Source of the DNA: Acidimicrobiia bacterium
GTDB taxonomy: Bacteria; Actinomycetota; Acidimicrobiia; Spongiisociales; Spongiisociaceae
DNA length: 64,000 bases
Assembly: GCA_009838635.1 (NCBI GenBank)
Contig: VXRE01000020.1
Span: 2,633-66,632, forward strand
Reading direction: 5' to 3'
Below the pieces are notes generated by a model, which did not search any database, was not told where the DNA came from, and saw only the letters and a list, made by a program, of their open reading frames with translations. A program made the translations under genes and the position numbers. Shown here piece after piece: positions 3,242 through 61,688 of this stretch. How positions within the stretch are numbered: the stretch's first letter is position 1; each line of letters starts with the position of its first letter.

Positions 3242-4129
3242 TCAAGTCGTGACCGAGTTGATGTAGTCGCGTACTATCGCCGCGCACTGCTCCGGTTGTT
3301 CGAGCGGAAGAAAATGGGTGGCTTCAGGAAGGAAGTCGTAGTCGACACTCAGCATGTCACTGAGGTCGAGCGTGGGCAGGTACGAGTACGGTACCAATGG
3401 GTCAGCCCCTAAGACCTTGGTCGGGCACTCGAGATCGTTGAAATCCACCAGCACCGAGTACGAGCTGGCGTAGTCGATTATCTGTGCCTCAAATTCCCGG
3501 GGGCATCTAAGCCTGTACGTGTCGTCGGTTCGGTCTTCACGGAGAGTGGTCCTTGCCATCAGATCGAGAACACCCGGTACAACCTGACGGAAGACGGGTG
3601 AGAAGCCGAGAAGCCCCACGAACTCATCGTACGATCGGAACCGGTCGCTACGACGGCGTGCGATGGCCGCTGTACGGGTAGCGGCTATGTCGAACTCCTC
3701 GTAGCTCCTACCCGGAGTGCAAAGAGGTGGATCCAGCAGGATCCGTGCCGCGAAGCCGCTTCCCCGTGTAGGGGACAGGAGGCTTACCAGTCCCGACAAG
3801 GAATGGAAGACACCTATCTTCGGTTTCTGTCCATAGGTTTCATCAATGGCCTCTAGAATATTGTCATGATCCTTAATAAACGTAGGTATGGTGTGGGCTC
3901 TCAAAGAGCCTGTTTCGTTCCATCCATGGTTCCTTAAATCGTAGAGTATTATATCACAATCTTTGGCGAGTAACGACCAGAATGGTAAATATAGATCAAT
4001 AGCCAGTCCGTTACCGTGACTCAGTACGAGCCGCGGACCCGAGGCTCTTCCGTGGCGGCGCAGAGTGATTCGGGTGCCGTCCTCCAGACGGACACCGTGC
4101 ACCGAACTCGGTTCCGGAACCTTCCACAC
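3242..4129 (-). CDS. Alpha/beta-fold hydrolase
   Basis: 295 aa. It has an oxyanion-type LSHGNG, a nucleophile elbow VFHSLSGL, and a C-terminal EATHFLPLEQPE (catalytic His region). The 5' half of the gene is markedly AT-rich. Confidence 0.8.
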   Translation of the reverse strand: MWKVPEPSSVHGVRLEDGTRITLRRHGRASGPRLVLSHGNGLAIDLYLPFWSLLAKDCDIILYDLRNHGWNETGSLRAHTIPTFIKDHDNILEAIDETYGQKPKIGVFHSLSGLVSLLSPTRGSGFAARILLDPPLCTPGRSYEEFDIAATRTAAIARRRSDRFRSYDEFVGLLGFSPVFRQVVPGVLDLMARTTLREDRTDDTYRLRCPREFEAQIIDYASSYSVLVDFNDLECPTKVLGADPLVPYSYLPTLDLSDMLSVDYDFLPEATHFLPLEQPEQCAAIVRDYINSVTT

Positions 4130-4200
4130 AGGGTCCGAACCCTAACCAAGCCGACGACCCTGCATGTTCGTCCGGCTGATCGCCGATCTGGAAGGCTGCG

Positions 4201-5151
4201 ATGGATGGCGGGGCAACGTCCTACAATCGGCGCATGACCGAGACCGACCGCCGACCGATCGACTACATCGCCGTGACCAGGGAGACCTACGCCCAGCTGG
4301 GTTACCAGCCCTACCGCTGGGCCCTCAACGAAGACCCGCCTTCGTGGGCCACGCTCGGCAAGCCGCTCTCGGAAGCCCGGCTGGGCTTGATCGCCTCGGG
4401 TGGGATCTACCGGCACGGGCAGGTGGCCTTCACCCACCGCGATGACGTGACCCACCGGGAGATCCCCACCGACGTGGACAGCGCCGAAGTCCGGGTGACT
4501 CACTTCGCCTTCGATCCGGCCGCCGCCCGGCGGGATCCCAACGTGGTCTTCCCGATCGACACCCTTCGTCATCTGGTTGCCGAGGGCACTGTGGGGGAGC
4601 TGGCGCCGCTGGCGCTCACCTTCATGGGCGGCATTTACTCGCAGCGCCGGCTGGCCTCCGAACTGATCCCGGTACTAGTGGACCGTGTCCTCGAATTGGA
4701 GTTGGACGCGGTGCTGCTGGTACCTGTCTGACCGGTGTGCCACCAGTCAGTTGGGCTGGTCAGTAGGGCGATCGAGCGCAAGGGCGTGCCCACCCTGTCC
4801 ATGACCAGCGCCCACTCCATCACGGCATCGGCCAACCCGCCTCGGGCGGCCTTCACCGACTTCCCGCTGGGTCACACCTGCGGGCCGCCTGACCGGCCGG
4901 TGGAGCAGCGGTCGATCATGCGCGACGCCCTGGCGCTGTTCGAGACCATGGACCGGCCGGGAATCGTGGACCTGGGCTACACGTGGCCCGCGCCATGGAA
5001 GGAAGCAGCGCTGCGACCGGGGGATCATCGCACCCCTCGTCACGACACCCCCCAGTACCAGAATCGGGATGACCGGGAGGCCGCGGTGGTGGCATACGGG
5101 GTCGGGATCGCCTGCCGGGCCGGCATCCCGGGCGATGTGCCCCGCTGCTGA
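4201..5151 (+). CDS. Glycine/sarcosine/betaine reductase component B (GrdB)/PrdB-family protein with one in-frame TGA (4729-4731); candidate selenocysteine
   Basis: ORFs 4201..4731 and 4735..5151 are in the same frame, separated only by TGA plus one codon. Read-through gives ...AVLLVPV-U-PVCHQSVGLVSRAIERKGVPTLSM, a U-x-x-C redox motif. An alternative start is ATG 4234. Confidence 0.6.
4742..4760 (+). promoter_or_regulatory. Candidate bacterial SECIS-like hairpin downstream of the in-frame UGA
   Basis: A-CCAGUC / GGCUGG-U forms a 7-bp stem (one G-U pair) with apical loop AGUUG. It starts 11 nt after the UGA. Folded by eye only. Confidence 0.35.
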
Positions 5152-6050
5152 TGGTCTCCGAACTGTTCGATCCGCTTGCCTGGCGCCCGGTAGAGGGTCT
5201 CTCCTTCGACGACATCACCTACCACCGGGCGGTCGATCAGGGAACGGTACGGGTGGCTTTCGATCGACCCGAAGTGCGCAACGCCTTCCGGCCGCAGACG
5301 GTGGACGAGCTCTATGTCGCCCTCGATCATGCCCGCCAATGGAGCGACGTGGGGACCGTCCTGCTCACCGGGAACGGCCCGTCTCCCAAGGATGGAGGTT
5401 GGGCTTTCTCCTCAGGCGGGGACCAGCGCATCCGCGGTAGAGCCGGTTACATGTACGCCGAGGGTGAAGGCGCCGCGGACATCGACCCCGCCCGTCTCGG
5501 AAGGCTCCACATCCTCGAGGTCCAGCGCCTGATCCGGTTCATGCCCAAGGTGGTCATCGCGGTGGTGCCGGGTTGGGCGGTAGGGGGTGGTCATAGCCTC
5601 CACGTGGTCTGCGACCTGACCCTGGCCTCGGAGGAGCACGCCGTCTTCAAGCAGACCGACTCCGATGTGGCCTCGTTCGACGCCGGATTCGGGTCGGCCT
5701 ACCTGGCCCGCATGGTGGGCCAAAAGCGGGCTAGGGAGATCTTTTTCCTCGGCGCCGACTACTCGGCCACGGAAGCCTTTCGTATGGGGATGGTCAACAA
5801 GGTGGTGCCTCATGCGGACCTGGAGGAGACCGCGCTGGAGTGGGCGGGGATCATCAACGCCAAGAGCCCCATGTCGCAGCGGATGCTCAAATTCGCCTTC
5901 AACCTGATCGATGATGGTCTGGTGGGCCAGCAGGTCTTCGCCGGCGAGGCCACCCGCCTCGGCTACATGACCGAAGAGGCCCAGGAGGGGCGGGATGCCT
6001 TCGTGGAGAAGCGTCCCAAGGACTTCTCGCGCTTCCCCCGTTATTACTAG
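5151..6050 (+). CDS. menB: 1,4-dihydroxy-2-naphthoyl-CoA synthase
   Basis: 299 aa with a crotonase fold and MenB-specific stretches (GNGPSPKDGGWAFSSGGDQRIRG, VPGWAVGGGHSLHVVCDLTLAS, EGRDAFVEKRPKDFSRF). Its ATG overlaps the upstream TGA by 1 nt. Confidence 0.93.
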   Translation: MVSELFDPLAWRPVEGLSFDDITYHRAVDQGTVRVAFDRPEVRNAFRPQTVDELYVALDHARQWSDVGTVLLTGNGPSPKDGGWAFSSGGDQRIRGRAGYMYAEGEGAADIDPARLGRLHILEVQRLIRFMPKVVIAVVPGWAVGGGHSLHVVCDLTLASEEHAVFKQTDSDVASFDAGFGSAYLARMVGQKRAREIFFLGADYSATEAFRMGMVNKVVPHADLEETALEWAGIINAKSPMSQRMLKFAFNLIDDGLVGQQVFAGEATRLGYMTEEAQEGRDAFVEKRPKDFSRFPRYY

Positions 6051-18944: not shown

Positions 18945-18985
18945 CGCCAGATCAATCACCCGCCGGGAGTATCCTTCCCCCACAG

Positions 18986-19061
18986 GGCCCGTAGCTCAAC
19001 CGGTCAGAGCAGCGGACTCATAATCCGTTGGTTGCAGGTTCGAGTCCTGCCGGGCCCACCA
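18986..19061 (+). tRNA. tRNA with anticodon CAT (Met, or Ile2 if lysidine-modified), CCA encoded
   Basis: A perfect cloverleaf folded by hand: acceptor GGGCCCG/CGGGCCC, D arm GCTC-AACCGGTCA-GAGC, anticodon arm GCGGA-CTCATAA-TCCGT, variable loop TGGTT, T arm GCAGG-TTCGAGT-CCTGC, then discriminator A and CCA. Confidence 0.93.
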
Positions 19062-26770: not shown

Positions 26771-27565
26771 TCAGGGCGTAGGGCCGGGTTCGGGGAACTC
26801 GCTGACCGGGAACACGCTGTTGACGATCTGCAGGTCGGCATTGGGGCAGTGCGGAAGCCATGTCCGGCGCCACTCGCTTCCGGGGATGTGGTAGAGAAGC
26901 TCGTCGCCGGCAACGATCTCGGCCTCCAGTTCGTACCTGCTGTGGCGGCTGATCTGCACGCCTTCGTGGGGGAGTGAGAACTCGATCGGGAACCTGTCGA
27001 GGTCGCCCCGAACGGTCTCGGTGACCACGAGCCGGGTCTCGGGATCGGTGATGTCGATCAGCCGAACGTGGAGCACGGCCTCTTGGGGCAGGTCTTCCTC
27101 CTCCATCTCGACGTGAATCTGTCCCGGCAGGGGCTCGACGCAGGTGTCGAAGGGGTTGGTGGAGACGACCACCACATCGGAGTTGGCGGGAGCGCCCCCG
27201 GTGAGCACGAGGTGGACGGTGTCGTTGACGTACAGCAGGTCATCGCCGAGCCTGACATCGGCGCTCAGCGAGTACTCGTTGCCGCTGACGATCAGGTCGC
27301 GGTCGTACTCGATGCGGAAGCGGGTCGGGAGCCGGTCGGCGTTCTCGATGACATCGAGCCCCAGCTCCACGGAGGGGGCATCGGCCAGCGTGATGTCCAG
27401 CAGCCGGACGGTGATGACCGCGCCCTCGGGCAGCTCGACCTCGCGAGCAAACAGCACCTCGCCGGAGATGGATCCCGCAGACCCGCCTGGCGCACAGGCA
27501 ACTGTCGCTGCAAGCGCCGTGGCCAGGACCGCCATCGTGAATGGACGCGCCAAACGATGCGTCAC
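26771..27565 (-). CDS. Lipoprotein with two tandem YbaY/YscW-like domains
   Basis: Signal peptide plus lipobox (MAVLATALAATVAC). Two repeats follow the pattern GEVLFAREVELPEGAVITVRLLDITLADAPS ... FRIEY and LPQEAVLHVRLIDITDPET ... FPIEFSL. The GTG start overlaps the ctaB stop (GTGA). Confidence 0.65.
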   Translation of the reverse strand: MTHRLARPFTMAVLATALAATVACAPGGSAGSISGEVLFAREVELPEGAVITVRLLDITLADAPSVELGLDVIENADRLPTRFRIEYDRDLIVSGNEYSLSADVRLGDDLLYVNDTVHLVLTGGAPANSDVVVVSTNPFDTCVEPLPGQIHVEMEEEDLPQEAVLHVRLIDITDPETRLVVTETVRGDLDRFPIEFSLPHEGVQISRHSRYELEAEIVAGDELLYHIPGSEWRRTWLPHCPNADLQIVNSVFPVSEFPEPGPTP

Positions 27566-28452
27566 CGGTTCACCAGCGAGTCGGTTGCCACGGCGGCGAA
27601 GAGCAGTGCCAGATAGAGGAGCGAGAACAGGTACAGCGCCCTGGCCCCCTCGGTTCCCTCACCGCGTGCGAGGCGGACCGCCAGGACGATGAACCACGCG
27701 CCCGGGCCGACGGCGCCGACCAGGTAGATCCAACCGACGGCGCCCGTCGCGACGAACGTCGCGGAGAGCACCACCAGCACCACCGTGTAGACCAGGATCT
27801 GGCGCTTGGTCGCGGCCAGCGTGGCGACCACCGGCAGCATCGGGATCCCGGCGCGGGCGTAGTCGTCCTTGATCAGCAATGCCAGGGCCCAGAAGTGCGG
27901 CGGCGTCCATAGGAAGATGATGGCGAACAGGTAGACGGCCGGTAGCTCGACCGTCCCGGTCACCGCCGCCCAACCGACCAGGGGCGGGACCGCGCCGGCG
28001 GCGCCACCGATGACGATGTTCTGGGGCGTCGTCCGCTTGAGGCCCTTGGTGTACACGAACAGGTAGATGAGCGTGCCGGCCACGGCGAGCAGGCCGCTGA
28101 GGACGTTCACGAAGGCGGCCAGGATCACGAAGGCGCCCAGGTTGAGGAGGATTCCGAAGCCGTAGGCCTGCCATTTGGAGACCCTCCCGCCGGCAACGGG
28201 GCGGGCGCTGGTACGGGCCATCTTCTGGTCGATGTCGCGCTCGGCGCCGTGGTTGAGAGAGTTGGCACCGCCGGCTGCCAGGTAGCCGGAGACGATGACA
28301 AGGGCGGTCACCAGGGGATCGGGCCGGCCCTCGGCGGCCAGGAACATGCTCCCCACGGCCGTGATGAGCAGCAGGGCCGTGATCCGGGGTTTGGTGAGCG
28401 CGACGTAGTCGCTCACAACCCTGGACGCGCGCATGCCTGGAGCGAGCATCAA
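27562..28452 (-). CDS. ctaB: Protoheme IX farnesyltransferase (heme O synthase)
   Basis: 296 aa, UbiA family: YVALTKPRITALLLITAVGSM ... NHGAERDIDQKMARTSARP ... FLWTPPHFWALA. Confidence 0.93.
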   Translation of the reverse strand: MMLAPGMRASRVVSDYVALTKPRITALLLITAVGSMFLAAEGRPDPLVTALVIVSGYLAAGGANSLNHGAERDIDQKMARTSARPVAGGRVSKWQAYGFGILLNLGAFVILAAFVNVLSGLLAVAGTLIYLFVYTKGLKRTTPQNIVIGGAAGAVPPLVGWAAVTGTVELPAVYLFAIIFLWTPPHFWALALLIKDDYARAGIPMLPVVATLAATKRQILVYTVVLVVLSATFVATGAVGWIYLVGAVGPGAWFIVLAVRLARGEGTEGARALYLFSLLYLALLFAAVATDSLVNR

Positions 28453-29453
28453 CCCGCGCGCCCCGGGTACCGGGACCTCACCCGGAAGGTTTCAGGATCG
28501 AACTGCACCGCGACCATCAGCACCATCGACACCCAGGACATCGTCGCGAAGACCAGATGCAGGGATGCTATGAGCGGAGTCGAACCCATCCATGCCGTCA
28601 GCGCGCCCACCCCGATCTCGATCACCAGGAACCCGGCCGTGAGCGCGGCCAGCCAACGAAGCTGTCCCCGTGCCGCCCCCTGTCTCCACGCCACGAAGCA
28701 GGTACGGAACACCACCACGGCCACGATGGCCACCATGTATCGGTGGGTCATGTTGATGACGAACGGCGTACCTCCGGGGATGCTGGTGCCTACGCAGAGC
28801 GGCCAGCTCGGACAGGCGGCCCCGTAGTTCATCCCCACCATGTAGGACCCGAAGAGGATGGTCACCAGCAGACCGCTCAAGCCGGCCCATGCCAGCCTCC
28901 GATCCCGCCTGGAGCCCCCGGTGTCGAGGTCCTGCGGGTCATCGGACCCATCATCAGGCGGACCGGCCAGCCAGGCGACGGCGAGGCCGGCCACGGTCAG
29001 CTCGGCCAGCCCCAGGTGGATCAGGCGCGTCCACCAGGAGAGCTCGCTCAGGACGGTGATGCCACCGAGGACCGCCGCCGCCACCACCAGTACCGTGCTC
29101 GCGCCCGTGGCGACGAGCGCGGGCTTCGATGCCCGCAAGTGTCGCCAAGCCAGCACGAGCGAAGCCACCACCAGGAAGCCCACCGCGGTCGCCGCCAGGC
29201 GGTGGGTGAACTCGAGCCAGATGTGGTAGTCGAAGGGCGGGATTATCTGTCCGTGGCAGAGCGGCCAATCCGGGCAAGCATCTCCCGAGCCGGTCACCCG
29301 GACGACCCCTCCGAGAGCGACTTGAGCGATGGCCGCTACCAGGCTTGCCAGCGTCACCGTTCTGTATCTGGCCCGGCCCGCTCGTGTACCCGCGGCGACA
29401 TGTGGCATGGCTGATCGCTCCGAGATTCGAATGGGGGATTCCCTCTGTGCCAT
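28449..29453 (-). CDS. ctaA: Heme A synthase (COX15/CtaA family)
   Basis: Polytopic protein with the paired Cys/His motifs of CtaA (GSGDACPDWPLCHG ... FTHRL ... GAACPSWPLC ... MTHRY). An alternative start is ATG 29408. It overlaps ctaB by 4 nt. Confidence 0.85.
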   Translation of the reverse strand: MAQRESPIRISERSAMPHVAAGTRAGRARYRTVTLASLVAAIAQVALGGVVRVTGSGDACPDWPLCHGQIIPPFDYHIWLEFTHRLAATAVGFLVVASLVLAWRHLRASKPALVATGASTVLVVAAAVLGGITVLSELSWWTRLIHLGLAELTVAGLAVAWLAGPPDDGSDDPQDLDTGGSRRDRRLAWAGLSGLLVTILFGSYMVGMNYGAACPSWPLCVGTSIPGGTPFVINMTHRYMVAIVAVVVFRTCFVAWRQGAARGQLRWLAALTAGFLVIEIGVGALTAWMGSTPLIASLHLVFATMSWVSMVLMVAVQFDPETFRVRSRYPGRAG

Positions 29454-29700
29454 CCTGAATTCGCGGTTGCAGGAGGCTCCCGGAAGCTACCGGATCGGAT
29501 CCCCTCCAATTCTAATCCGCCCTGGGGCATCGAGAGGTCGCCGAGGACGGTCTGCCGGAGCCGCGGTTCCGCCACGCCGCAGGCCGTACGTATCGGCCTC
29601 GCGGACCCGAGCCGTTCAGGGATCTCGACCAGGACATGGGGCCCTATATAGTGGCCAAAGTGGAGGGACTCACCATCATCGGCCGACCTGATCGGCATCT

Positions 29701-30225: not shown

Positions 30226-30270
30226 CCCGGAGTTCGGAACGCACCCCGGTCGGGGTAGAGTTCGCGGACC

Positions 30271-31287
30271 GTGATCCTCTCTTCTGGTACGAGTTCCCGC
30301 TCTCTGGGCTTCCTGGGACCTGCCGGTACTTTTACCGAGGAGGCGCTGGTCACCCGGCAATACCTGGCAGCGATGCGCCGCCAACCGTTCAACTCGATGC
30401 TGCAGGTCCTGAAGTCCGTGGAGTCCGGCGTGGTGGACGTCGGGTTCGTTCCGATCGAGAACATGATCGAGGGGGCCGTCACCTCCAGCATCGACACCCT
30501 GGCCTTCGGAACCGGCCTGTTGATCCAGGACGAGGTGATAATGGATGTCAGCCTGGCGCTGATGGCGCTTCCCGGCACGGACCTCCAGAACGTCAAGTAC
30601 ATCCTCTCCTACCCCCTCGCCTCGGCACAGTGCAGCCGGTTCATCACCCGGCGTCTACCCGGCGCGGTGATGGTGGCGGCCAACTCGACGGCCGGCGCCG
30701 CCCGCGACCTGGTCGCCCGGGGGGACATGGACACGGTGGTGATCGCTCCACAGAGAGCCGCCGAGGTCTACGGCTTGGAGGTTCTCGAGGCGGGCATAGA
30801 GGATCGGTCCGGCAACCAGACGCGCTTCCTGCTGGTGGGCCGCGACACCGTTCCCCCACCGACGGGACGGGATAAGACCAGCCTGGTCGTGTACCAGCGC
30901 GCCGACGCACCGGGGTCCCTGGTGGGGATCCTGGGCGAATTCGTGGCCCGGTCCATCAACATCACCAGCCTGCAGAGCCGTCCCACCAAGGCCAGCCTCG
31001 GGAGCTACTGCTTCCTCATCGACTGCGAGGGTCACGTGATGGACGAGAAGCTGGGCGACGCGCTACGCAACCTCCAGATGAGGGCGGCCAGCGTCAAGTT
31101 CCTCGGCTCCTACCCGGCGGACTCGGTCAGCCCGGTGGACGGTCCGGCCAACCGAGCATTGCGCGAGGACGTGGATGCCTCCTACGTGGACGATGAGGGA
31201 TACCTGGTCCTGGCGGGCGTGCCCGACCAGACGAGCCGCGAAGAGGCCGATGCGTGGCTGGCCGACGTGCGCTCCAGAGTCGTCTGA
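30271..31287 (+). CDS. pheA: Prephenate dehydratase (with ACT domain and a ~55-aa C-terminal extension)
   Basis: LGFLGPAGTFTEEA ... VPIENMIEGAV ... NQTRFLLV ... ACT region GSLVGILGEFVARSINITSLQSRPTK ... YCFLIDCEGH. Confidence 0.9.
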   Translation: MILSSGTSSRSLGFLGPAGTFTEEALVTRQYLAAMRRQPFNSMLQVLKSVESGVVDVGFVPIENMIEGAVTSSIDTLAFGTGLLIQDEVIMDVSLALMALPGTDLQNVKYILSYPLASAQCSRFITRRLPGAVMVAANSTAGAARDLVARGDMDTVVIAPQRAAEVYGLEVLEAGIEDRSGNQTRFLLVGRDTVPPPTGRDKTSLVVYQRADAPGSLVGILGEFVARSINITSLQSRPTKASLGSYCFLIDCEGHVMDEKLGDALRNLQMRAASVKFLGSYPADSVSPVDGPANRALREDVDASYVDDEGYLVLAGVPDQTSREEADAWLADVRSRVV

Positions 31288-45787: not shown

Positions 45788-46606
45788 ATGGATCGGTCCT
45801 CCATCGCAATCGTCGGGGTCGGCGCCATGGGCGGCGCCCTCTTGTCCGGCCTCCTCGAGGCCGGCTGGACTCCCGCTGACCTGACACTGATCGAGGCCTA
45901 CGAACCTCGGGCCGCGGAGTTGCGGGAAGCCACCGGCTGCCGCACCGTGACCGTGCCGTCCGATGGCATCGACGGCCAGGATATCGTGGTCCTGGCGGTC
46001 AAACCCCAGGACATCCACGGTGCCCTGCTTCAACTGGCCGAGGTCTTGACCGCGGATCAAGTACTCGTGGCGCTGGTCGCCGGGGTTCCGATCAGCGTGT
46101 ACGAGCGGGCTCTCGGCGAGGTGCCGGTGATCCGGACCATGCCCAACACGCCCGCACTGGTAGGTGAGGGGATCACCGCCTGCGCGGCCGGCGCCCACGC
46201 CACCGCCGGTCACCTGGCTATGGCCCGGACCGTACTGTCGGCCGTGGGCCTGGTGGAGGAGGTCGAAGAGGCCCTGATGGATGCGGTGACCGCGGTGTCG
46301 GGGAGCGGACCGGCCTATGCCTACCTGCTCGCCGAGGCGATGGTTGCCGAGGGAATCCGCCAGGGACTCGATCCGGCGACAGCGCTGCGGCTGACGGCCC
46401 GGACCATCAGGGGCGCAGGGACGATGATGGAGACCTCCGATGACGACCCGTCCGTGCTGCGTGAACGGGTGGCGTCCCCGGGCGGCACCACCGCCGAGGC
46501 CCTGGCGGTCATGGACCGGCGCGGCTTCGTGGACGTGGTCCGTGAGGCGGTAGCCGCCGCGACGGACCGCTCCATAGAGCTCGGAGAGATCGCCGCCGGC
46601 TCGTAA
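45788..46606 (+). CDS. proC: Pyrroline-5-carboxylate reductase
   Basis: IAIVGVGAMGGALLSGL ... VLAVKPQD ... IRTMPNTPALVGEGITA ... SGSGPAYAYLLAEAM ... VASPGGTTAEAL. Confidence 0.93.
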   Translation: MDRSSIAIVGVGAMGGALLSGLLEAGWTPADLTLIEAYEPRAAELREATGCRTVTVPSDGIDGQDIVVLAVKPQDIHGALLQLAEVLTADQVLVALVAGVPISVYERALGEVPVIRTMPNTPALVGEGITACAAGAHATAGHLAMARTVLSAVGLVEEVEEALMDAVTAVSGSGPAYAYLLAEAMVAEGIRQGLDPATALRLTARTIRGAGTMMETSDDDPSVLRERVASPGGTTAEALAVMDRRGFVDVVREAVAAATDRSIELGEIAAGS

Positions 46607-46679
46607 CCGTTTGGTCGACAAGTCCGGCAAGGCTGCGCTCTACACTCGGGCGACCGTCCGAAACACGGAGGGAGCCTGG

Positions 46680-48824
46680 ATGCGCCGCAAGTTCACCGCC
46701 GCCGAGATACTGGTGTTCCTGGGAGTGCTGGCGGTGGTCGGAACCCTGGCGAGTTGGTTTGCCGGACAGTTTCCGGGCCACGCCGAGAGCCCCGTATCCC
46801 GCAAGGTGTTCGTCAACATCCCGGCCGCGGTGGAAGGCATGTTCTACGTGGCGGTGGCGGGCTTCCTCTTCCTTACCTTCTACCTGTTCTCGCTCCGCGC
46901 CAAGAACTGGCAGCGGGGCGCGCCCGACCGGCGCACCGGTCACTGGAGGGAGCGGCTGGAGGCCATGGGCGCCGGACTCCGGATGCAGACGCTCATGCGC
47001 GACCGCGGCGCCGGCCTCATGCACTCCATGGTCTACTACGGGTTCCTGGTGCTGTTCCTGGGTACCGTGACCCTGGAGATCGACCATCTGCTGCCGGCCG
47101 GTCTCAAGTTCCTCCAGGACGACGTATACCGGGCCTATTCCTTCATCCTGGATGCGGCGGCTCTGGTGTTCCTCGGGGGCTTGGCCTGGGCCTTCGTGAG
47201 AAGGTATGGACAGGCCCCGTGGCGCCTGCGGTCCAAGACCCGACCCGAGGACTTCTGGATCCTCGTCACCCTGGCCCTGATCGGCGTCAGCGGGCTGGCC
47301 ACCGAAGCGGCCCGGATCGCGGTCGAGAACCGGCCGTCCTACGAGGTGTGGTCGTTCGTGGGCTATCCGCTCTCGCTCTTGGTGCCGCAAGGGCCGGCAG
47401 CGGGGATCCATCAGGTCATCTGGGTGATCCACGTGGCCTCCTTCCTGGCGTTCCTGGTCGTGCTGCCCACTACCAAGCTCCGGCACATGGTCACCTCGCC
47501 GGTCAACATGTTCCTCGGTCCCAAGGAGCGGCCACCTGGCGCCATGCGTGAGATGCCCAACCTGATGGAGGTTGACGACATCGAGACCGTGGGCGCGTCG
47601 CTCGTGGGGGAGTTCACCTGGAAACAGCTGCTCGACACCGACGCATGCACGGTGTGCGGGCGGTGCACATCGGTGTGCCCTGCCACCGCCACGGGCAAAC
47701 CGCTGGATCCGCGCGAGATCGTGCTCAAGCTCGGCGAGGTGGCGGCCCGCACGGCCGATCCGGCCGTGACGCCCCCGGTCTCGGTGGACGAGGCCATAAC
47801 CGTGTCCGCCGACAACGTGTTCGAGCGGATCACCCCCGAGGAGCTCTGGGCCTGCACATCGTGCAAGGCATGCGACGAGATCTGCCCGGTCGACATCGAG
47901 ATCCTGGACAAGATCCTCGACATGCGCCGCTACCTGGCGTTGATGGAAGCGGACTTCCCGGCCGAGCTGGGGAAGGCCTACCTGTCGATGGAGAACTCCT
48001 CCAATCCGTACGGTATGGCCCAGGCGGACCGAGCGGCGTGGACCGCCGAACTGGACTTCGAGGTGCCGATCCTCGGCCAGGATGTGGAGACGGCCGAGTA
48101 TCTCTACTGGGTGGGGTGTGCCGGCTCGTTCGATGACCGTAACCGGAAGGTGACGGTGGCGACTGCCCGCCTCCTCCATGAGGCCGGGGTCAGCTTCGCC
48201 ATCCTGGGTCCCGCCGAGCTATGCACCGGTGATCCGGCCCGGCGGTCGGGAAACGAGTTCGTCTTCCAGATGCTCGCCATCCAGAATGTCGAGACGCTCG
48301 AGGACCGCGGGGTCCGCAAGGTCATCACCCAGTGCCCGCATTGCTTCAACACCCTGAAGAACGAGTACCCGCAGTTCGGTGGCGACTACGAGGTGATCCA
48401 CCACAGCCAAGTCCTGTCCGACCTGGTGAGCCAGGGCCTGCTCAGGACGAGGAACGGGCAGTCCAAGACGGTGACCTACCACGATTCTTGCTACCTCGGG
48501 CGCCATAACGGCGTGTACATGGCCCCCCGGGGAGTGGTGGCCTCCATCGGCGGGATCAACGTGGTGGAGATGGGCCGCTCCGGGACCCGCTCGTTCTGTT
48601 GCGGGGCCGGCGGTTCGCAGATGTGGATGGAGGAACGGGTCGGCAAGAAGGTCAACATCGACCGGGCCGAGGAGGCGGTGGCAACCGGAGCGGACGAGGT
48701 AGCCGTGGCATGCCCCTTCTGCTTCGTGATGCTCGATGACGGCGTCCGCGAGCTCGGCCAGGAGGAATCGGTGGCCGTCCGGGACATCTCGATGATCCTG
48801 GCCGACTCCGTCTTCGAAGACTAG
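46680..48824 (+). CDS. Membrane-anchored (Fe-S)-binding reductase (NarI-like TM domain + 2x[4Fe-4S] + two CCG domains; HdrD/GlpC-like, Rv0338c-like)
   Basis: N-terminal TM helices, then CTVCGRCTSVCP and CTSCKACDEICP ferredoxin motifs, then CCG-type motifs (WVGCAGSFD ... ITQCPHCFNTL ... HDSCYLGR ... CCGAGG ... ACPFC). Start ATG 46680 with SD ggaggga. Confidence 0.85.
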   Translation: MRRKFTAAEILVFLGVLAVVGTLASWFAGQFPGHAESPVSRKVFVNIPAAVEGMFYVAVAGFLFLTFYLFSLRAKNWQRGAPDRRTGHWRERLEAMGAGLRMQTLMRDRGAGLMHSMVYYGFLVLFLGTVTLEIDHLLPAGLKFLQDDVYRAYSFILDAAALVFLGGLAWAFVRRYGQAPWRLRSKTRPEDFWILVTLALIGVSGLATEAARIAVENRPSYEVWSFVGYPLSLLVPQGPAAGIHQVIWVIHVASFLAFLVVLPTTKLRHMVTSPVNMFLGPKERPPGAMREMPNLMEVDDIETVGASLVGEFTWKQLLDTDACTVCGRCTSVCPATATGKPLDPREIVLKLGEVAARTADPAVTPPVSVDEAITVSADNVFERITPEELWACTSCKACDEICPVDIEILDKILDMRRYLALMEADFPAELGKAYLSMENSSNPYGMAQADRAAWTAELDFEVPILGQDVETAEYLYWVGCAGSFDDRNRKVTVATARLLHEAGVSFAILGPAELCTGDPARRSGNEFVFQMLAIQNVETLEDRGVRKVITQCPHCFNTLKNEYPQFGGDYEVIHHSQVLSDLVSQGLLRTRNGQSKTVTYHDSCYLGRHNGVYMAPRGVVASIGGINVVEMGRSGTRSFCCGAGGSQMWMEERVGKKVNIDRAEEAVATGADEVAVACPFCFVMLDDGVRELGQEESVAVRDISMILADSVFED

Positions 48825-49515: not shown

Positions 49516-49792
49516 GCTTGTCCGAGACTGTTGAACGTGTCAGGTCTCCATGAGGCTCAATTAACTGCGTGGTAGGGCGGTTCGGGAGTGGTGGCCCGGC
49601 TCGCGAGCCCTGTATTCGCGAAGAATCAGCCTCTCGAACACGCGCCGGATCAGCGGAGCTACCTGATGCGTGCCGCCGCAAATTACCACGGCCTAGACCG
49701 CGAAGGTAGCACCGAACGGACCCCGTTCACAGGATTTACACACCCGTACTCGCCTTAGCGGATGGACATTCGTAGCGAGTACCCTCCGGCCC

Positions 49793-50608
49793 ATGAAGAT
49801 CGGTTATCAAGGCGAAGGCCTCTCGTACTCGGACCAGGTGGCGATCCGACTCTTCCCGGATGCGCAGCGGGTCGGTTTCGGCAGCTTCGCCCGAGCCTTC
49901 CTGGCGCTCGGGCACGGTGATGTTGATCGGCTGGTGCTGCCGATCGAGAACTCCACCGTCGGGAGCATCTTGCCGGTTCTCGACCGGCTGGCCCGTCACC
50001 CGGTCTCGATCATCGGCGAACACCTCATCGAGGTGCGCCATGCCCTGATCGGCCTTCCCGGATCGACCATCGACGGTATCAAAGAGGTCTGGTCGCATCC
50101 CCAAGCTCTCGCACAGGCGGATGACCGCATCGAGCAGGCAGGATGGAGCCCGATTCCTTTCTACGACACGGCCGGTGCGGTTCGGGCTGTTGTCGAGAGA
50201 GGTGATCCTTCGGTGGCTGCTCTGGCCCCTCTGCACACTGCCCGGCGGCATGGCGCGCAGGTACTCCAGGAGGAGTTCCTGGATCGGGACCACAACACCA
50301 CCCGGTTCGTGATCCTGGCCGCGGACGGATGGGAGGTGAGCGACGACGCCAACAAGACCTCCATGGTGTTCGAGACGGCTCACTCACCCGGCGCGCTGGC
50401 CCTTGCCCTCACCGAACTCGGCCTGCGCGGCGCCAACCTGACGCACTTGCAGTCACGGCCCGCGGACGAGGCCTGGAAGTACCGGTTCTACGCCGACATG
50501 ATCCATGAACCCGGTCCGCGAGGAGTCAAGGACATCCTGGAGCCCCGTCCGGCCACCCTGGCTGCGTTGCGCGTACTGGGTACCTACCCGGCGGCCGAGG
50601 TTCCCTGA
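49793..50608 (+). CDS. pheA: Prephenate dehydratase, second paralog
   Basis: MKIGYQGEGLSYSDQVA ... LPIENSTVGSI ... VWSHPQALAQ ... NTTRFVIL ... ACT region PGALALALTELGLRGANLTHLQSRP ... YRFYADM. Confidence 0.88.
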   Translation: MKIGYQGEGLSYSDQVAIRLFPDAQRVGFGSFARAFLALGHGDVDRLVLPIENSTVGSILPVLDRLARHPVSIIGEHLIEVRHALIGLPGSTIDGIKEVWSHPQALAQADDRIEQAGWSPIPFYDTAGAVRAVVERGDPSVAALAPLHTARRHGAQVLQEEFLDRDHNTTRFVILAADGWEVSDDANKTSMVFETAHSPGALALALTELGLRGANLTHLQSRPADEAWKYRFYADMIHEPGPRGVKDILEPRPATLAALRVLGTYPAAEVP

Positions 50609-52872: not shown

Positions 52873-53373
52873 TTGATGAAGGTGTCCATGTCAGTCAATG
52901 GAAGGCAGGTCTCCGGGGAAGCAGAACCACGTACGCTGCTGGTTCACTTCCTACGGGAGAACCTGGGGTTGACGGGCACGCATGTGGGATGCGAATCGTC
53001 CTATTGCGGTGCCTGCACTATCAGCCTCGACGGCCAGGCCGTGCTCTCCTGCACCATGCTGGCCGCCCAGGCCGATGGTGCGGATATCACCACCGTCGAG
53101 GGTCTGGCCCGCAACGGTGAACTGCATCCGGTCCAGGAGGGCTTCTGGGAGCGCCACGGCCTCCAGTGCGGCTTCTGCACACCGGGGATGATCATGTCGG
53201 CCGTAACCCTCCTCGAGGAGAACGACAATCCCTCAGAAGAGGAGATCCGGCGCGGCATCGAAGGCAACCTGTGCCGCTGCACCGGCTACCACAACATCGT
53301 GCGGGCAATCGAATACGCCGGCGCCAAGATGCGCGGCGAAGAGCCCGCCCCGGCCGAATGGGAGAACGCATGA
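52873..53373 (+). CDS. coxS: (2Fe-2S)-binding small subunit of a molybdenum hydroxylase (CoxS/CutS-like)
   Basis: [11 protein letters not shown] and [11 protein letters not shown] ... [12 protein letters not shown] are the two [2Fe-2S] motifs. Confidence 0.92.
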
Positions 53374-55745
53374 GCTCGACAAGTGTGCTGGGCGGCGTCG
53401 TAAGGCGCCGGGAGGATCCGGCCCTGATCCAGGGTGGCGGCCGCTACACGGACGATGTGAAGCTGGCGGGCACCGCCCACGTGGCCTTCGTCCGGAGCCC
53501 TTTCGCTCACGCCGACGTCCTGTCAGTCGACACGTCCGCCGCCGAGGCGATGGACGGCGTCCTGGCCGTCTACACCGCAGCCGACGTGGAGCACCTCGGC
53601 TCTCTGGTGGCGCAGGTGCCGGTCGGCGCCCTGCGGCCGCTGCTCAACAACGGCACCGTGAAGCACGTCGGCGAAGCGGTGGCCATGGTGGTCGCGGAAG
53701 ATCCGTACGTGGCGCGCGACGCCGCCGATGCGGTCGATGTCGACTACGACGCCCTAGCGGCGGTCGTGGACCTGAAGCACTCGCTTAGTGACGAGATGCT
53801 CGTTCACGAGGACATGGAGTCGAACACCCTGATTTCGTGGACCGGCCCGTTCGGCGCGGACGCCGATGCCCTGGCGGCCGTCAAGGCGGGTATCGATGAG
53901 CAGAAGTCGAGGGACGACGTGGTGGTGGTCTCCCAGGAGATGATCAACCAACGGCTCATCCCGGTTCCCATCGAGCCCCGTTCGGTCATGGCCGACTACC
54001 AGGTCGGCTACGGCCGCTTCGATGTCTACTCGTCCACCCAGATCCCGTCGGCGCTGGCCGGGGCCATCGGCAAGTACTTCGGTATGGCCCTCAACCAGGT
54101 GACCGTCAAGGCGATGGAGGTGGGCGGCGGTTTCGGCTGCAAGCTCAACGTCTACAACGACGAGGTGCTCGTGGCCTTTGCCTCGAAGCAACTGGGCTGC
54201 CCGGTCAAGTGGACCGAGACCCGCCGCGAGGCGGCCAACTCGACCATCCAGGGTCGCGGCTGGATAGCCACCGCCACCATGACCGGCACGACGGACGGTG
54301 AGATCCTCGGATTCGAGTTGGACGGCATCGCCGACATGGGCGCCTACTCGCAGAACTTTACCGTCGCCATCCCGTTCCTAGGGGTGTTCGTCGGGTCGGG
54401 CCAGTACTCCTTCCCCACGCACTGGAAGATGGACTGCGTCACCACCCACACGATGACCACGGACGCTTACCGGGGCGCCGGCCGACCGGAGGCCGCCTAC
54501 TACCTGGAGCGGGTCCTCGACATGTACGCGAGGAAGATCGGGGTGGACCCGGCCGAGGTGCGCCGCAAGAACTACATCTCGGCGAGCGAGTTCCCCGGGG
54601 CGGTCTCGCCCATGGGGTTCCCTATGGACACGGGTGACTACGAGACCAACCTGGATGCCGCCCTCGAGTCGGCCGGTTGGTCCGGCCTGCTGGCCGAGCG
54701 GGACGCCGCCCGGGCCGAGGGACGTCACGTCGGGGTCGGGATCGCCACCTATGTCGAGGTGTGCGGCTTCGGACCCTCGGGCCTGGTGGACCTCGGTTTC
54801 TCATGGGCCGAGTACCAGATGCCGTCGGCGTTCAACGGTTCGAGCCTGGTCAGAGTACATCCTGACGGATCGGCCACCGTATCGATCGGGACCGGACCCT
54901 CAGGCCAGGGCCACCAGACGACGTGGGCGCAGATCGTCGGCGACGGCCTCGGAATGGATGTCGACCGGATCCGGGTGATCCACGGCGACACCGAGGAGGC
55001 CCCGCCCAGCATCGGCACCTTCGGGTCCAGGTCCGCAGCGGTGGATGGCTCCGCCTGCTACGAGGCCACCCAGAAGGTCCAGGCCAAAGCTGCCAGGATC
55101 GCGGCCCACCTGCTCGAAGCGTCCGAGGATGACATCGAGTTCGCCGACGGAGGCGCCCATGTGGCCGGGACCGACAGTTCGGTCGGTTGGGACGAGATCG
55201 CCAAGGCGGCCTACCAGCCCCACGTCCTGCCGGAAGGCATGGAGGGGGGCTTGGAGGCGCATGCCATCTTCAGCCCCGGCAACGCCACGTGGCCGTTCGG
55301 GACCCACATCGCCATGGTGGAGGTCGATGCCGACACCGGGGACGTGAGGCTGTTGCGATACATCGGGATGGACGACTGCGGCAATGTGATCAGTCCGATG
55401 ATCGTGGACGGTCAGATCCACGGTGGCATTGCCCAGGGTGTCGGCCAGGCCATGTTCGAGGACGCGGTCTACGACATGGACGGGAACCTGCTGTCGGCCT
55501 CGCTGGTGGACTACATCCTGCCTACCGCGGTCGACCTGCCCTCGTTCGAGTTGGGCCGCACGGTGACGCCCACCGATATCAACCCGCTCGGGGTGAAGGG
55601 CATCGGCGAGGCGGGCACCATCGGCGCCGCGCAGACGGTTGTCAACGCGGTGGTAGACGCCTTGGAGTCGTTGGGGGTGACCCATATCGACATGCCTTTA
55701 CGCCCGCAACGGGTGTGGCAGGCCATCCAGGACGCCCAGGCGTAG
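53370..55745 (+). CDS. coxL: Molybdopterin-binding large subunit, form II CO-dehydrogenase-like (CoxL-II)
   Basis: 791 aa from ATG 53370, which overlaps the coxS stop. The active-site loop AYRGAGR at 54465-54485 is the form II signature, not the AYxCSFR of form I. Confidence 0.88.
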
Positions 55746-55758
55746 GGAGGAGGAGCCC

Positions 55759-56625
55759 ATGTATCCACGACAGTTCGACTACGTAGCGCCCTCCAGCCTG
55801 GATGAGGCGCTGGCGGCTCTCGATGCGAATCCGGGAGCCAAGGTGCTGGCCGGCGGCATGAGCCTGCTGCCGATGATGAAGATGCGGCTGCTGTCGCCCG
55901 ACATGGTGGTGGACATCGGCCGGATCGGCGGGTTGGGTGACATCACCGACAACGGTGATTCCATCTCGATCGGTGCGCTGGTGACCCATAGCGAGGTTGC
56001 GGCCAGCGGCCTGGTCCAGGACCACGGCGCGGCGCTGGCCACTGCTGCTTCCTGGACGGGTGATCGCCAGGTCCGTAACCGGGGTACGTGTTGCGGGTCG
56101 ATGGTCCATGCCGATGTGGCGGCCGACCAGCCGGTCGCGGCGCTCGCTCTGGGCGCCACGATGGTGGCGGCGTCGTCGGGAGGCACGCGTGAGATCGCGG
56201 CCGCCGACTTCTTCGTGGACACGTTGATGTCCGCGTTGGAGCCCGGTGAGATCCTCACCGAGATGCGGATTCCCAAGGTCGGCGCCGGCACGGGTTCGGC
56301 CTATGACAAGCTGGGCCGCCGGGGTGGTCACACGGACTATGCGGTGGCCGGCGTGGCCGCTTCGGTGACCCGTTCCAACGGTTCGGTCAGCGCGGCCACC
56401 GTCGCGGTGACCGGTGTGGGCAGCCGTCCGGTCCTGGCCGCCGGAGTGGCCGATGCTCTGGTCGGTTCCGATGGTTCCGACGCCGCCGTCGAGGCAGCTG
56501 CGGCCCATGCGACCGCCGGGATCGACGTGCTGGAGGACCTGTACGGGTCGGTGGCCTACAAGACCCACCTGGCCCAGGTGTTCACAGCCCGGGCCGTGAA
56601 GGCAGCCCTGGCTGCGGCCGGGTAG
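55759..56625 (+). CDS. coxM: FAD-binding medium subunit (CoxM/CutM-like)
   Basis: 288 aa. MYPRQFDYVAPSSLDEALAAL ... KVLAGGMSLLPMMKMRL ... AYDKLGRR is typical of a FAD_binding_5/CO-dehydrogenase flavoprotein. Confidence 0.9.
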   Translation: MYPRQFDYVAPSSLDEALAALDANPGAKVLAGGMSLLPMMKMRLLSPDMVVDIGRIGGLGDITDNGDSISIGALVTHSEVAASGLVQDHGAALATAASWTGDRQVRNRGTCCGSMVHADVAADQPVAALALGATMVAASSGGTREIAAADFFVDTLMSALEPGEILTEMRIPKVGAGTGSAYDKLGRRGGHTDYAVAGVAASVTRSNGSVSAATVAVTGVGSRPVLAAGVADALVGSDGSDAAVEAAAAHATAGIDVLEDLYGSVAYKTHLAQVFTARAVKAALAAAG

Positions 56626-56700
56626 CTCCGAGGGAGGTACGTCCCGGCAGACCCTGCTGAGGCCGGCCGCCCGCATCATGAGGGCGTGTAACCTGGCGGA

Positions 56701-57585
<885 letters not shown>

Positions 57586-57592
57586 TCCTCTG

Positions 57593-58762
57593 ATGGCTGT
57601 CGGTGTGTTCGCCCAGAACGTGATCCACTTCGCGCGCTACCTGCGCGCCAAGGGCCTCGAGGTCGATCCGCGCACCGGCATGGAATTGCTCACCTCGGCC
57701 CACGTGTTGGGTCTCGAAGATGTTCGGGACATCAGGTGCGGGTTCCGGTCGCTGGTGGTAACCCGTCCCGATCAGCTGCCGGTGTTCGACGAGGCGTTCG
57801 AGCTGTTCTTCGGGTCGGGAGGGCGGAAGCGGACCCCCGTGGAGGCGGAGTCCGACCGGATGGTTCAGTCCTACCTCCCCGTGCTGACCTCGGCCGGCCA
57901 GCTCGACGAGGAGGATACGGAGGACAGCAGCGAACAGATGGGGGCTTCTCACGCGGAGCGTCTCGGCACCCGCGACTTCGGCGAACTGACAGCCGACGAG
58001 ATGGCCGAGGTGCGGAGGCTGATCTCTCGCATGGTGTGGAGACCGGCCGAGGCGCTGAGTCGCCGCTGGATGCCCGACTCGATGGGAAGCCGCCCCGACA
58101 TGCGCAGGACCCTCCGGAATGCGGTCGGTCCCCGCGGCGAGCTGCTGGAGATGGAGTTCCGATCCCGCCGGCCGCGCCGGCGCCCGCTGGTGATCATCGC
58201 TGACGTGAGCGGATCGATGGAGAAGTACGTGGAATTGCTGCTGTACTTCGCCCACTCCGCCCCGGCGCGGATGGGCCGGGTCGAGACCTTCGTGTTCTCC
58301 ACCCGGCTGACCCGCATCACCCACGAGCTCCGCCGCCGGGATCCGGCCATGGCGCTCCGCCTGGTGGCAGGCCGCGTACACGACTGGTCGGGCGGGACGC
58401 GGATCGGAGAAGCTCTGGCAACCTACAATCGGCACTGGAGTCGACGGGTGGCCAGAGGTGGTCCGATCGGAATTATCATCAGCGACGGATGGGACCGCGG
58501 AGATCCGGAACTGCTGAGCCAGGAGATGGCGCGGTTCTCGCGCTCCGTCCATCGAACCATCTGGCTGAATCCCCTGGCGGGCCGCAAGGGGTATTCGCCG
58601 GAGACCCGAGGGCTTAAGGCGGCGTTGCCGTACGTGGACGACTTCCTGCCCGCCGCCCGGCTGGTGGATCTGGGTGGAGTCATCCGGCTGTTGGAGTCGA
58701 TACCTCCCCACCCGAGCCAGGCCACGAGAGGATCGCCTAGACGAGGAGCCCGGGCATCATGA
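57593..58762 (+). CDS. coxE: VWA domain-containing protein (CoxE-like)
   Basis: [14 protein letters not shown] (MIDAS DxSxS) ... [11 protein letters not shown] ... [11 protein letters not shown]. Confidence 0.85.
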
Positions 58763-59067
58763 AGGATGCGCTGAGTGTCTACAACCGATGGATCGAGGAA
58801 GGGAAGCAGGTCGCGGTGGCGACGGTGGTGCGGGTCAAGGGCTCGGCTCCCCGCCCCGAGGGCGCCAAGTTCCTGGTGTCATCCGAAGGTGACATGGAGG
58901 GCTCGGTGAGCGGTGGCTGCGTCGAGAACGACGTGTTCCTCCACGCCCAGGAGGTGCTCGCAACGGGAGAACCTCGCCTGGTGACCTACGGCATCGCCGA
59001 CGAAGACGCCTTCGAGGTGGGTCTGGCGTGCGGAGGGACCATCCAGGTGCTGGTCGAGAAATGGTAA
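58759..59067 (+). CDS. XdhC/CoxI-family N-terminal-domain protein (stand-alone)
   Basis: 102 aa. [40 protein letters not shown] ... is the XdhC_CoxI domain. Confidence 0.8.
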
Positions 59068-59849
59068 GCACCCAGCTGGAGGCGGTCCGTAGGCTCGTCG
59101 AGGAGGAGCGGCTGGGGGCCGTCACCACCGTGGTCGAAGGCCCCGCCGCCGGCGCCAAGGCGGTGCTGGATCGGGCGGACGGGCTGGTGGCCGGGACCAT
59201 CCCCGCCGAGATACTCGACGCCGTGCAGGCCGACGCGGCCAGCCTCATGGACCGTGAGCAGAGCCGTACCCTCGGATACGGGGAGCACGAGGTGTACATC
59301 GAAACGGTGGCGCCCCAACCACGGCTCCTGATCATCGGGGCGGTTCACATCGCGCAGGAGCTGTGCCGGATCGCTCACGGCCTGGGCTTCAGGGTGGTCG
59401 TCACCGACTCCCGTCCGTTCTTCACCACGCCCGAGCGCTTTCCCGAGGCCCATCAGGTGATCGTCGGGTGGCCGGGAGAGATCGAGGACCAACTGGACAT
59501 CGACCGCCGGACCTATGTGGTGATGCTCAGCCATGACGCCCGTTTCGAGGATCCGATGCTGCCGCTCGTACTACCCAGTGAAGTCAAGTACATCGGGGTC
59601 ATGGGAAGCCGCCGCACCCACCGGAAGCGGGTGGAACGGCTGCGCAAGGCCGGGTTCCCCGAGGATCAGATCGCCAGGATCCGCGGCCCGGTCGGGCTCG
59701 ACATCGGCGCCGAGCAACCCGGCGAGGTGGCCATATCCATCCTGGCCGAGATGATCCAGGTCCGGTACGGGTCGGGTACCGGGGAGTCTCTCGTCGGGCG
59801 GAGGGGCCGGGTCCACCTTCAACGCACGGAGGATGCCGGAGACCTATGA
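59061..59849 (+). CDS. XdhC-family molybdenum-cofactor insertion accessory protein (N-domain plus Rossmann domain)
   Basis: ATG 59061 overlaps the upstream [22 protein letters not shown] ... [33 protein letters not shown] ... [14 protein letters not shown]. Confidence 0.85.
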
Positions 59850-59898
59850 CCGTTCCTGGTCGGGTTCCGTCCAACCGTCAACGCTCGTTCGCCCGGTC

Positions 59899-60492: not shown

Positions 60493-60653
60493 CAGCCGGG
60501 CACGTCACGATGTGCTCGATCTGGTTGGCCTCGACTCCTCATGGACAGGACTCTGGAGGCGGAGTGGGGTGGAGTTCGGCCTCCTCAGCGGGGGTCAGCG
60601 ATCTCGATGACTCCGATCGGGTCTATCCTCTCTGAGTAACGCGTGGAGGATGC

Positions 60654-61670: not shown

Positions 61671-61688
61671 ATCTGACCAGCAGTCCGG

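Follow-up and report, generated by a model that had tools for sequence, protein, structure and literature searches.

The described systems closest to the gene analyzed here are PrdB of D-proline reductase (TIGR04483; Clostridium/Acetoanaerobium sticklandii, C. difficile and Terrisporobacter) and the GrdB/GrdF/GrdH proteins (TIGR01917 and TIGR01918), for which the full-length GrdB architecture spans about 430 amino acids (aa). A "proline reductase PrdB" family (pfam07355, with a UxxC motif in which U stands for selenocysteine, Sec) was reported among the top selenoprotein families of the surface ocean, with 42 genes in the Sargasso Sea (Zhang et al. 2005, PMC1088965), and was represented by 235 Sec versus 110 Cys forms in the Global Ocean Sampling (GOS) metagenomes (Zhang and Gladyshev 2008, PMC2398784). 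"Proline reductase" selenoproteins are also listed for Anaeromyxobacter and Geobacter (PMC1794560). The DNA studied here is a stretch of 64,000 nucleotides (nt) of contig VXRE01000020.1 from an Acidimicrobiia bacterium of the Spongiisociaceae, hereafter the window. At positions 4201-5151 of its + strand it contains a predicted selenoprotein gene of 316 codons, PrdB-like and belonging to the PF07355 GRDB superfamily, which is interrupted in frame by a TGA codon. Taken together, the family scores, the codon composition and the comparison with relatives argue that this region very probably specifies one protein of ~34 kDa of the GrdB/PrdB superfamily, in which UGA-177 would be decoded as Sec.

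As noted in the first-pass annotation of the window, the region is made up of two open reading frames (ORFs), 4201..4731 (176 aa, ending at the TGA at 4729-4731) and 4735..5151, that lie in a common frame and are split only by this TGA and the codon CCG. The frame past the TGA is free of stops until the TGA at 5149-5151, and reading through gives a product ...LDAVLLVPV-U-PVCHQSVGLVSRAIERKGVPTLSMTSAHS... of 316 codons in total, in which the motif reads LLVPV-U-PVC-HQSVGLVSRAIERKGVPT. The TGA at 4729-4731 (+) is the predicted Sec codon (residue 177), as judged from aligned TGA codons in relatives and in an annotated prdB. Cys180, encoded by the TGC at 4738-4740 (+), is invariant in all aligned homologs and is predicted to act as the resolving cysteine in the U-P-V-C motif. 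On the two sides of the internal TGA the GC content of third codon positions (GC3) is nearly the same, 0.84 before and 0.85 after it, and therefore both halves look coding. A Shine-Dalgarno-like sequence, GGAAGG, is located at 4190-4195 (+), 5 nt 5' of ATG 4201, and since the gene 5' of 4201 lies on the opposite strand (3242-4129), the selenoprotein gene is the start of a transcription unit.

Gene callers split or truncate 4201-5151 at codon 177. The region is, however, base-identical in three other public records, the NCBI metagenome-assembled genome (MAG) GCA_009843115.1 (contig VYEC01000001.1) and two ENA metagenome scaffolds, from different samples. This excludes an assembly error confined to a single record, a concern that the earlier annotation had raised about the TGA. 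TGA is the most frequent ordinary stop of the window, closing 20 of 41 ORFs, and it also terminates the selenoprotein gene itself, which rules out a reassigned genetic code. A scan of the window for further gene pairs joined by an in-frame TGA returned only two adjoining same-frame ABC-transporter genes; its filter was so strict that it missed 4201-5151.

The reference PrdB was that of plasmid pTM1 of Terrisporobacter mayombei (L168, NZ_CP101638.1), where prdB is annotated in a prdC-prdA-prdB cluster and translates as ...GVLLTAG*GTCHRSAVLVQRAIEEAGIPT. BLASTP aligned the window protein with this PrdB over 221 residues (34% identity, E = 1e-42), such that residue 177 falls on the TGA-encoded residue 151 of PrdB and Cys180 on a PrdB Cys. 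This alignment verified the clostridial Sec motif context that the first-pass annotation had cited. The two proteins thus have ~220 homologous residues in common, with the Sec and the +3 Cys aligned and followed by a common helix (...RAIE..G.PT...), and in both of them the Sec position is encoded by an in-gene UGA. They differ in length (316 aa for the window protein versus 241 aa for PrdB, with ~45 extra N-terminal and ~60 extra C-terminal residues in the former) and in the motif, which is U-P-V-C-H-Q in the window protein versus U-G-T-C-H-R in PrdB. They also differ in context: the window gene has no prdA, prdC, prdD or prdE neighbours, and its hosts are aerobic.

Profile comparisons gave a consistent picture. 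The read-through protein matched the Pfam family GRDB (PF07355) with 36.8 bits (cut-off 22) over aa 54-173, and its best NCBIfam match was PrdB (TIGR04483) with 144.3 bits over aa 46-255, below the equivalog cut-off of 300. The GrdB/GrdF/GrdH models, for which cut-offs of the GrdB type span 65-800 bits, gave 49-59 bits and matched with their C-terminal parts only (model positions ~220-385), including the Sec site. The scores stayed below the cut-offs for both TIGR01917 (49 versus 602 bits) and TIGR01918 (53 versus 65.45 bits). In contrast to these proteins, the window protein lacks the N-terminal 220 residues, and no grdA, grdE, grdC or grdD is located nearby. Together with the Cys homologs described below and the alignment of the PrdB Sec, these scores strongly support the view, put forward in the first-pass annotation, that the locus is one GrdB/PrdB-family gene with a predicted Sec UGA in a U-x-x-C motif.

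A true PrdB subunit of D-proline reductase, with the genes for its partners (the PrdA proprotein, PrdC and others) at some other place in the genome, would explain the TIGR04483 match and the aligned Sec and Cys, and would agree with the literature, which files such marine sequences as "proline reductase PrdB". Against it, the score is under half of the equivalog cut-off, and the protein carries the extra terminal regions mentioned above. Moreover, no PrdA, PrdC, PrdD or GrdA-like gene was found within 10 kb in the window lineage (window and loci L001-L004), and two ORF-clustering passes over up to 165 loci revealed no partner gene conserved across lineages, only lineage-specific neighbours. 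The largest cluster of the second pass consisted of spurious alternative-frame ORFs overlapping the gene itself. The hosts, finally, look aerobic: the window encodes heme A and heme O synthases and a CoxL-type molybdenum (Mo) hydroxylase. We consider this explanation quite improbable. Two features that define D-proline reductase are missing, as the score falls short of the equivalog level and prdA and the other prd genes are not co-located within the 10 kb examined. We place the window protein in a large "orphan PrdB-like" clade, most members of which contain Sec and which has a wide distribution among aerobic bacteria from marine, soil and symbiotic settings. As the clade is without the pyruvoyl subunit PrdA, the protein is probably not a bona fide D-proline reductase.

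This clade resembles the PrdB family of the marine metagenomes in its pfam07355 domain, its UxxC motif, the excess of Sec over Cys forms and its abundance in oxic marine habitats; we equate the two from domain, motif and habitat rather than from the published sequences. The metagenome papers label the family proline reductase, and the present data argue against that function. The first-pass annotation had considered the arrangement not to be a described system. That view does not hold, because a PrdB-type UxxC selenoprotein was already abundant in the Sargasso Sea and GOS lists (PMC1088965, PMC2398784). The selenoprotein status of the family is already established, and the window gene is an ordinary member, new in a sponge-symbiont Acidimicrobiia. 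A literature search for Spongiisocius found nothing.

Some observations on plasmid-borne relatives were made alongside. The 21.9-kb T. mayombei plasmid (L168) carries prdD, prdC, prdA and the Sec-containing prdB together with selD and selA, and so constitutes a portable module for proline reductase and selenocysteine synthesis; the same prdB match was obtained for eight Terrisporobacter plasmids of ~21-22 kb. Plasmid pOT1-1 of Haematobacter massiliensis encodes a more distant Cys-form member (L169, 4962-5888; CPICHQ, 35% identity), which is flanked by a gene for a 900-aa class-III aminotransferase-fold protein and by cobalamin biosynthesis genes.

We next consider the RNA downstream of the UGA. 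The first-pass annotation had described a hairpin at the distance expected for a bacterial selenocysteine insertion sequence (SECIS), and its coordinates were borne out. The core of this SECIS-like hairpin (4742-4760, +) consists of 7 bp (4742-4748/4754-4760) closed by the loop AGUUG (4749-4753), and folding at -10.2 kcal/mol extends it by a 3-bp lower stem (4738-4740/4763-4765) to 4738-4765 (+). The hairpin starts at the 11th nt after the UGA, which we take to be close to the spacing of the minimal E. coli element. As in the E. coli fdhF-type SECIS, the UGA is directly followed, within the ORF, by a stem-loop with a small apical loop carrying G-U; the stem-loop is, however, unrelated in sequence to that of fdhF, and binding of SelB to it is putative. 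The published consensus for bacterial SECIS elements (bSECIS; PMC13188914, Fig. 2) comprises a loop of 3-9 nt, an upper stem of 4-16 bp, a minimum free energy of -7.5 kcal/mol or lower, a G among the first two loop nucleotides, with G or U as the usual next base, and a UGA-to-loop distance of 16-37 nt. The window hairpin agrees with it in all these respects, having a 5-nt loop with G at position 2 followed by U, a 7-bp stem, an energy of -8.9 kcal/mol and a UGA-to-loop distance of 17 nt. None of 200 shuffled sequences was as stable as the 19-nt core (z = -3.07), and the 62-nt stretch around it gave z = -0.23; on the single sequence the hairpin is only moderately unusual. It is the comparison with relatives that places the arrangement of hairpin and TGA far beyond chance.

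For this comparison we used an alignment (A3) of 140 distinct Sec-type sequences. Ten tested base pairs showed standard pairing in 90.9% of the cells, versus 20-38% when the 3' partner was slid by 1-3 columns, and the covariation score of 0.157 was reached in none of 500 shuffles. The pair formed by the wobble base of a Gln codon and the first base of a Leu codon (columns 24-34) was GC in 132 sequences, AU in 6, GU in 2 and mismatched in none, and Gln CAA occurred only together with Leu TTG (6/6). Likewise, His CAY covaried with Val/Ile RTY: the pair between the His wobble base and the first base of Val or Ile (columns 21-37) was UA in 84 sequences, CG in 34 and UG in 3, and was unpaired in 19. 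The compensatory changes were therefore of the types CAG/CTG to CAA/TTG and CAC/GTY to CAT/ATY. The lower stem (alignment pairs 16-42, 17-41 and 18-40) was less conserved in the family.

Codon choice within the hairpin was strongly skewed in the same 140 sequences. The Gly codon was GGA in 98, GGG in 35, GGT in 7 and never GGC, versus a GGC background of 45% in the same genes; the Leu codon was CTG in 132, TTG in 8 and never CTC (background 34%); and the Ser codon was always TCN, versus a background of 23% AGC. The loops found in the family are GUG, GUC, AGUUG, GUU, GGUCG and GAUCG, and therefore G-U is always presented. The median core energy was -9.7 kcal/mol in Sec forms versus 0 to -4.6 kcal/mol in nine forms with Cys or Thr at the aligned position. 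The Thr form of locus L170, for example, encodes the identical peptide HQSVGLI, but its codons GGC CTC break the stem. The lack of the hairpin in Cys and Thr forms indicates selection on the RNA structure as such, restricted to genes that have UGA at this codon. At the catalytic position, otherwise Sec or Cys, a Thr codon (ACN) was seen in L170 (6001-7044, database protein P0007), L159 and L162, the last of which retains six of the seven stem pairs, as if recently converted.

Downstream hairpins can stimulate read-through generally, and the Sec machinery of the window genome is a deduction rather than a demonstration. Both points would fit read-through of the UGA without selenium, by a near-cognate Trp or Cys tRNA or another recoding signal, with the hairpin acting only as a stimulator. 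However, the UGA occupies the position of the catalytic Sec of PrdB, where homologs have Cys, the hairpin has the apical G-U and the spacing of SelB-dependent elements, and TGA serves as a normal stop, also at the end of this very gene. We regard selenium-free read-through as very unlikely, and decoding of UGA-177 as Sec remains the preferred reading.

A scan of one genome per GTDB species yielded at least 581 relatives of the gene, the best 80 of which were analyzed. All 80 have TGA at the aligned codon. They represent at least six phyla and include Acidimicrobiia, Anaerolineales, Deltaproteobacteria/Deferrimicrobia, Binatia, Pseudomonadales, Entotheonella, Verrucomicrobiales and others; the closest (86-92% identical) are sponge-associated Ca. 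Spongiisocius and Spongiisociaceae MAGs. Complete chromosomes with close orthologs include OZ241858.1 (Ca. Spongiisocius sp., 88% identity), OZ219922.1 and OY760694.1. In each of the 80 genomes the 3' frame runs on past the TGA for 121-159 codons, and its two sides are about equally conserved (median identity to the window protein 60% upstream, 59% downstream). A metagenome scan seeded with Cys-form queries recovered 79 loci, of which 73 have TGA, four TGC and two ACN, so that even with this seed Sec forms prevailed; they make up 153 of 159 environmental or genome relatives. TGC at the aligned codon was found in L087, L105, L111, L171 and L172.

Two kinds of relatives were obtained in a search against ~5.8 billion proteins. 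Dozens of database proteins of 173-200 aa that are 50-92% identical to the window protein all terminate exactly at ...LLVPV, and fewer homologs of ~300 aa (41-53% identical) continue as LLVPV-C-PVCHQ, P0007 having Thr at this place. In the full-length homologs P0005-P0034 the motif is LLVP(V/A/M/F)-C-P(V/I)-CHQ, with the Cys aligned to the UGA, so that, together with the TGA in the species genomes, Cys or Sec homologs line up with codon 177 as the first-pass annotation would predict. Clustering at 50% identity gave 1,074 representatives with E <= 0.001; among the best 150, 65 end at a strict ..VP. motif and only three continue with Cys by the same motif test, the remaining ones ending at variant motifs or being fragments or frameshifted calls. 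Judged from these alignments, short proteins ending in LLVPV next to rarer ones continuing with Cys are the classic signature of a Sec/Cys family truncated by gene callers.

These data bear directly on whether the gene is broken. A nonsense-mutated or split pseudogene, in which the TGA terminates translation and the downstream part decays, would account for the 176-aa N-terminal ORF being all that gene callers and databases give, and for Sec machinery genes not being found in the window. Yet the same TGA is present in more than 150 distinct sequences across phyla, and the downstream half, free of frameshifts and stops, is conserved like the upstream half and has the GC3 given above. Conservation of both the TGA and the downstream frame across relatives is incompatible with a pseudogene, a split gene or a sequencing error, and we judge decay of the gene to be extremely unlikely. 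Equally little speaks for two separate polypeptides, a 176-aa N-terminal one and a C-terminal one starting at GTG 4735, since, although this GTG is a possible start codon in the window, it is GTC, GTT or GTA in most relatives, so that the C-terminal part has no conserved start of its own, it is not preceded by a ribosome-binding site, and the Cys-form homologs are single chains modeled as one compact fold.

This structure model was made for the Cys-form homolog P0008, which is 52% identical to the window protein (pLDDT 92), and has the motif in the middle of the fold. The model predicts a strand at 169-173 followed by a helix from 177, which would place the motif at the helix N-terminus; beyond this placement, structure offered no lead to function.

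Several results weigh against a Sec-containing GrdB/PrdB-family protein. Tblastn with E. coli queries revealed no selA, selB or selD, and ARAGORN no tRNA-Sec, either in the window or across 166 loci covering ~1.9 Mb. The PDB gave no sequence match to the window protein, and Foldseek with the Cys-form homolog model gave no match at E <= 0.001. A permissive Rfam scan of 4650-4850 yielded nothing but chance matches to miRNA and lncRNA families (E > 4), with no SECIS family among them. Furthermore, the conservation of the hairpin is owed partly to the conserved peptide HQSVGL. The Rfam result is expected, as bacterial SECIS elements are poorly represented in Rfam; a scan of the window at gathering thresholds likewise reported tRNA-Met alone. 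A tblastn match to SelD (E = 0.016) at 55344-55604 of the window lies inside the ORF of a Mo-hydroxylase large subunit and was rejected as chance. When the SelA of Miltoncostaea oceani, taken from an actinobacterial selD-selA-selB operon, was used to search the protein database, the best 120 matches were all at least 60% identical to the query, and Acidimicrobiia were not reached. Sec use in aerobic marine Acidimicrobiia is documented, because selA, selB, selC and selD are reported for all 84 complete genomes of Actinomarina, which belongs to another order of this class (preprint 10.64898/2026.04.03.716425). In the window genome the Sec machinery would be expected from the selenoprotein gene itself.

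Based on the known bacterial mechanism, translation of the gene would proceed as follows. The hairpin at 4742-4760 would present its apical G-U 17 nt after the UGA, and SelB carrying Sec-tRNA(Sec) and GTP would bind it and deliver Sec to the ribosome in place of release factor 2. According to the established pathway, Sec-tRNA(Sec) would be made by SelA from Ser-tRNA(Sec), with selenophosphate supplied by SelD, so that decoding would require selA, selB, selC and selD elsewhere in the genome. By homology to PrdB and GrdB and from the Cys-form model, Sec177 and Cys180 would form a U-x-x-C selenol/thiol redox pair at the N-terminus of a helix. The same homology suggests that the selenol would attack a substrate or partner, that Cys180 would resolve the adduct to a selenenylsulfide, and that a dithiol donor such as thioredoxin would re-reduce it.

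The gene downstream, at 5151-6050 (+), is menB, encoding 1,4-dihydroxy-2-naphthoyl-CoA synthase (NF006186, 572 bits with a cut-off of 378; TIGR01929, 411 bits). The stop codon of the selenoprotein gene overlaps the menB ATG (5151-5153) by one base in the sequence TGATG (5149-5153, +), as the first-pass annotation had read it. The coupling to menB that it proposed fared less well, and a functional link between the two genes is weak. A menB gene lies 3' of the gene in 19 related Acidimicrobiia loci only, at stop-to-menB distances of up to ~1.4 kb, and other lineages have unrelated neighbours. The TGATG overlap is found in the window and in eight other loci (relative start 422) and is confined to the closest relatives. 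Going by the loci compared, the adjacency of menB is synteny in one Acidimicrobiia family and not conserved coupling. No other men genes were found in the window. The sequence at 5125-5153 has no recognizable Shine-Dalgarno sequence before the menB ATG, and in the Spongiisocius lineage translation of menB may depend on ribosomes completing the upstream selenoprotein ORF.

In the window lineage the gene is preceded by dnaK-grpE-dnaJ-hspR, DUF3151, an ORF resembling acyl carrier protein (ACP) and an alpha/beta hydrolase gene on the opposite strand, and the downstream order is selenoprotein gene, menB, nfeD/band-7, ABC transporter. In other Acidimicrobiales loci the upstream neighbours encode an MTS methyltransferase and an AAA ATPase, and phosphoenolpyruvate (PEP) carboxylase is encoded downstream. 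An ADP-forming acyl-CoA synthetase gene adjoins the gene in 13 Deferrimicrobia-type loci and in one Thr-form locus, and an AMP-dependent ligase gene does so in one Cys-form locus. Genes of acyl-CoA metabolism thus recur beside PrdB-like genes in separate lineages (the L037-L062 group, L170, L172 and window 5151-6050). This recurrence is a weak functional hint, and there is no universal partner.

Further genes of the window were recorded. A UbiA-family prenyltransferase gene at 27562-29486 (-) lies beside a COX15/CtaA homolog, the two corresponding to heme O and heme A synthases, which indicates aerobic respiration; the UbiA-family protein is probably CtaB rather than MenA. At 53121-60492 (+) there is a CoxL/xanthine-dehydrogenase-type Mo hydroxylase cluster that comprises a large subunit, an FAD subunit, a CoxD-like AAA ATPase, a CoxE-like VWA protein and a MobA-like nucleotidyltransferase. 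The gene at 46578-48824 (+) encodes a 748-aa protein with a NarI-like membrane domain, a 4Fe-4S dicluster and two CCG cysteine-rich domains (HdrD/GlpC-like). Two prephenate dehydratase paralogs, a DAHP synthase and a prephenate dehydrogenase are encoded at 30259-31287 (+), 49697-50608 (+) and 60636-62711 (+). The sole tRNA gene of the window, for tRNA-Met (CAT), is located at 18985-19061 (+), after a tandem universal-stress-protein gene.

As to function, one could speculate that the proteins of the orphan clade are selenoenzymes that work on their own, with a chemistry unrelated to Stickland reduction of proline and perhaps in carboxylate or acyl-CoA metabolism, and that menB of Spongiisocius depends on Sec decoding. 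The idea stems from the menB, acyl-CoA synthetase and AMP-dependent ligase neighbours, and its prospects are slim. If it were true, the one-base overlap with a menB that has no Shine-Dalgarno sequence would make menaquinone synthesis dependent on Sec decoding and hence on selenium supply. The gene, and hundreds like it in species-representative genomes, stand in databases as truncated entries of ~175 aa, sometimes accompanied by a spurious downstream ORF, and calling the orphan clade "proline reductase", as is customary, is probably wrong. For the window itself the finding means nothing beyond an ordinary family member. Read correctly, though, the gene would add a selenoprotein to the genome of a sponge-symbiont Acidimicrobiia and would imply a Sec-decoding system there, and it belongs to a family which, among those dominated by Sec forms, ranks with the most widespread in oxic habitats.

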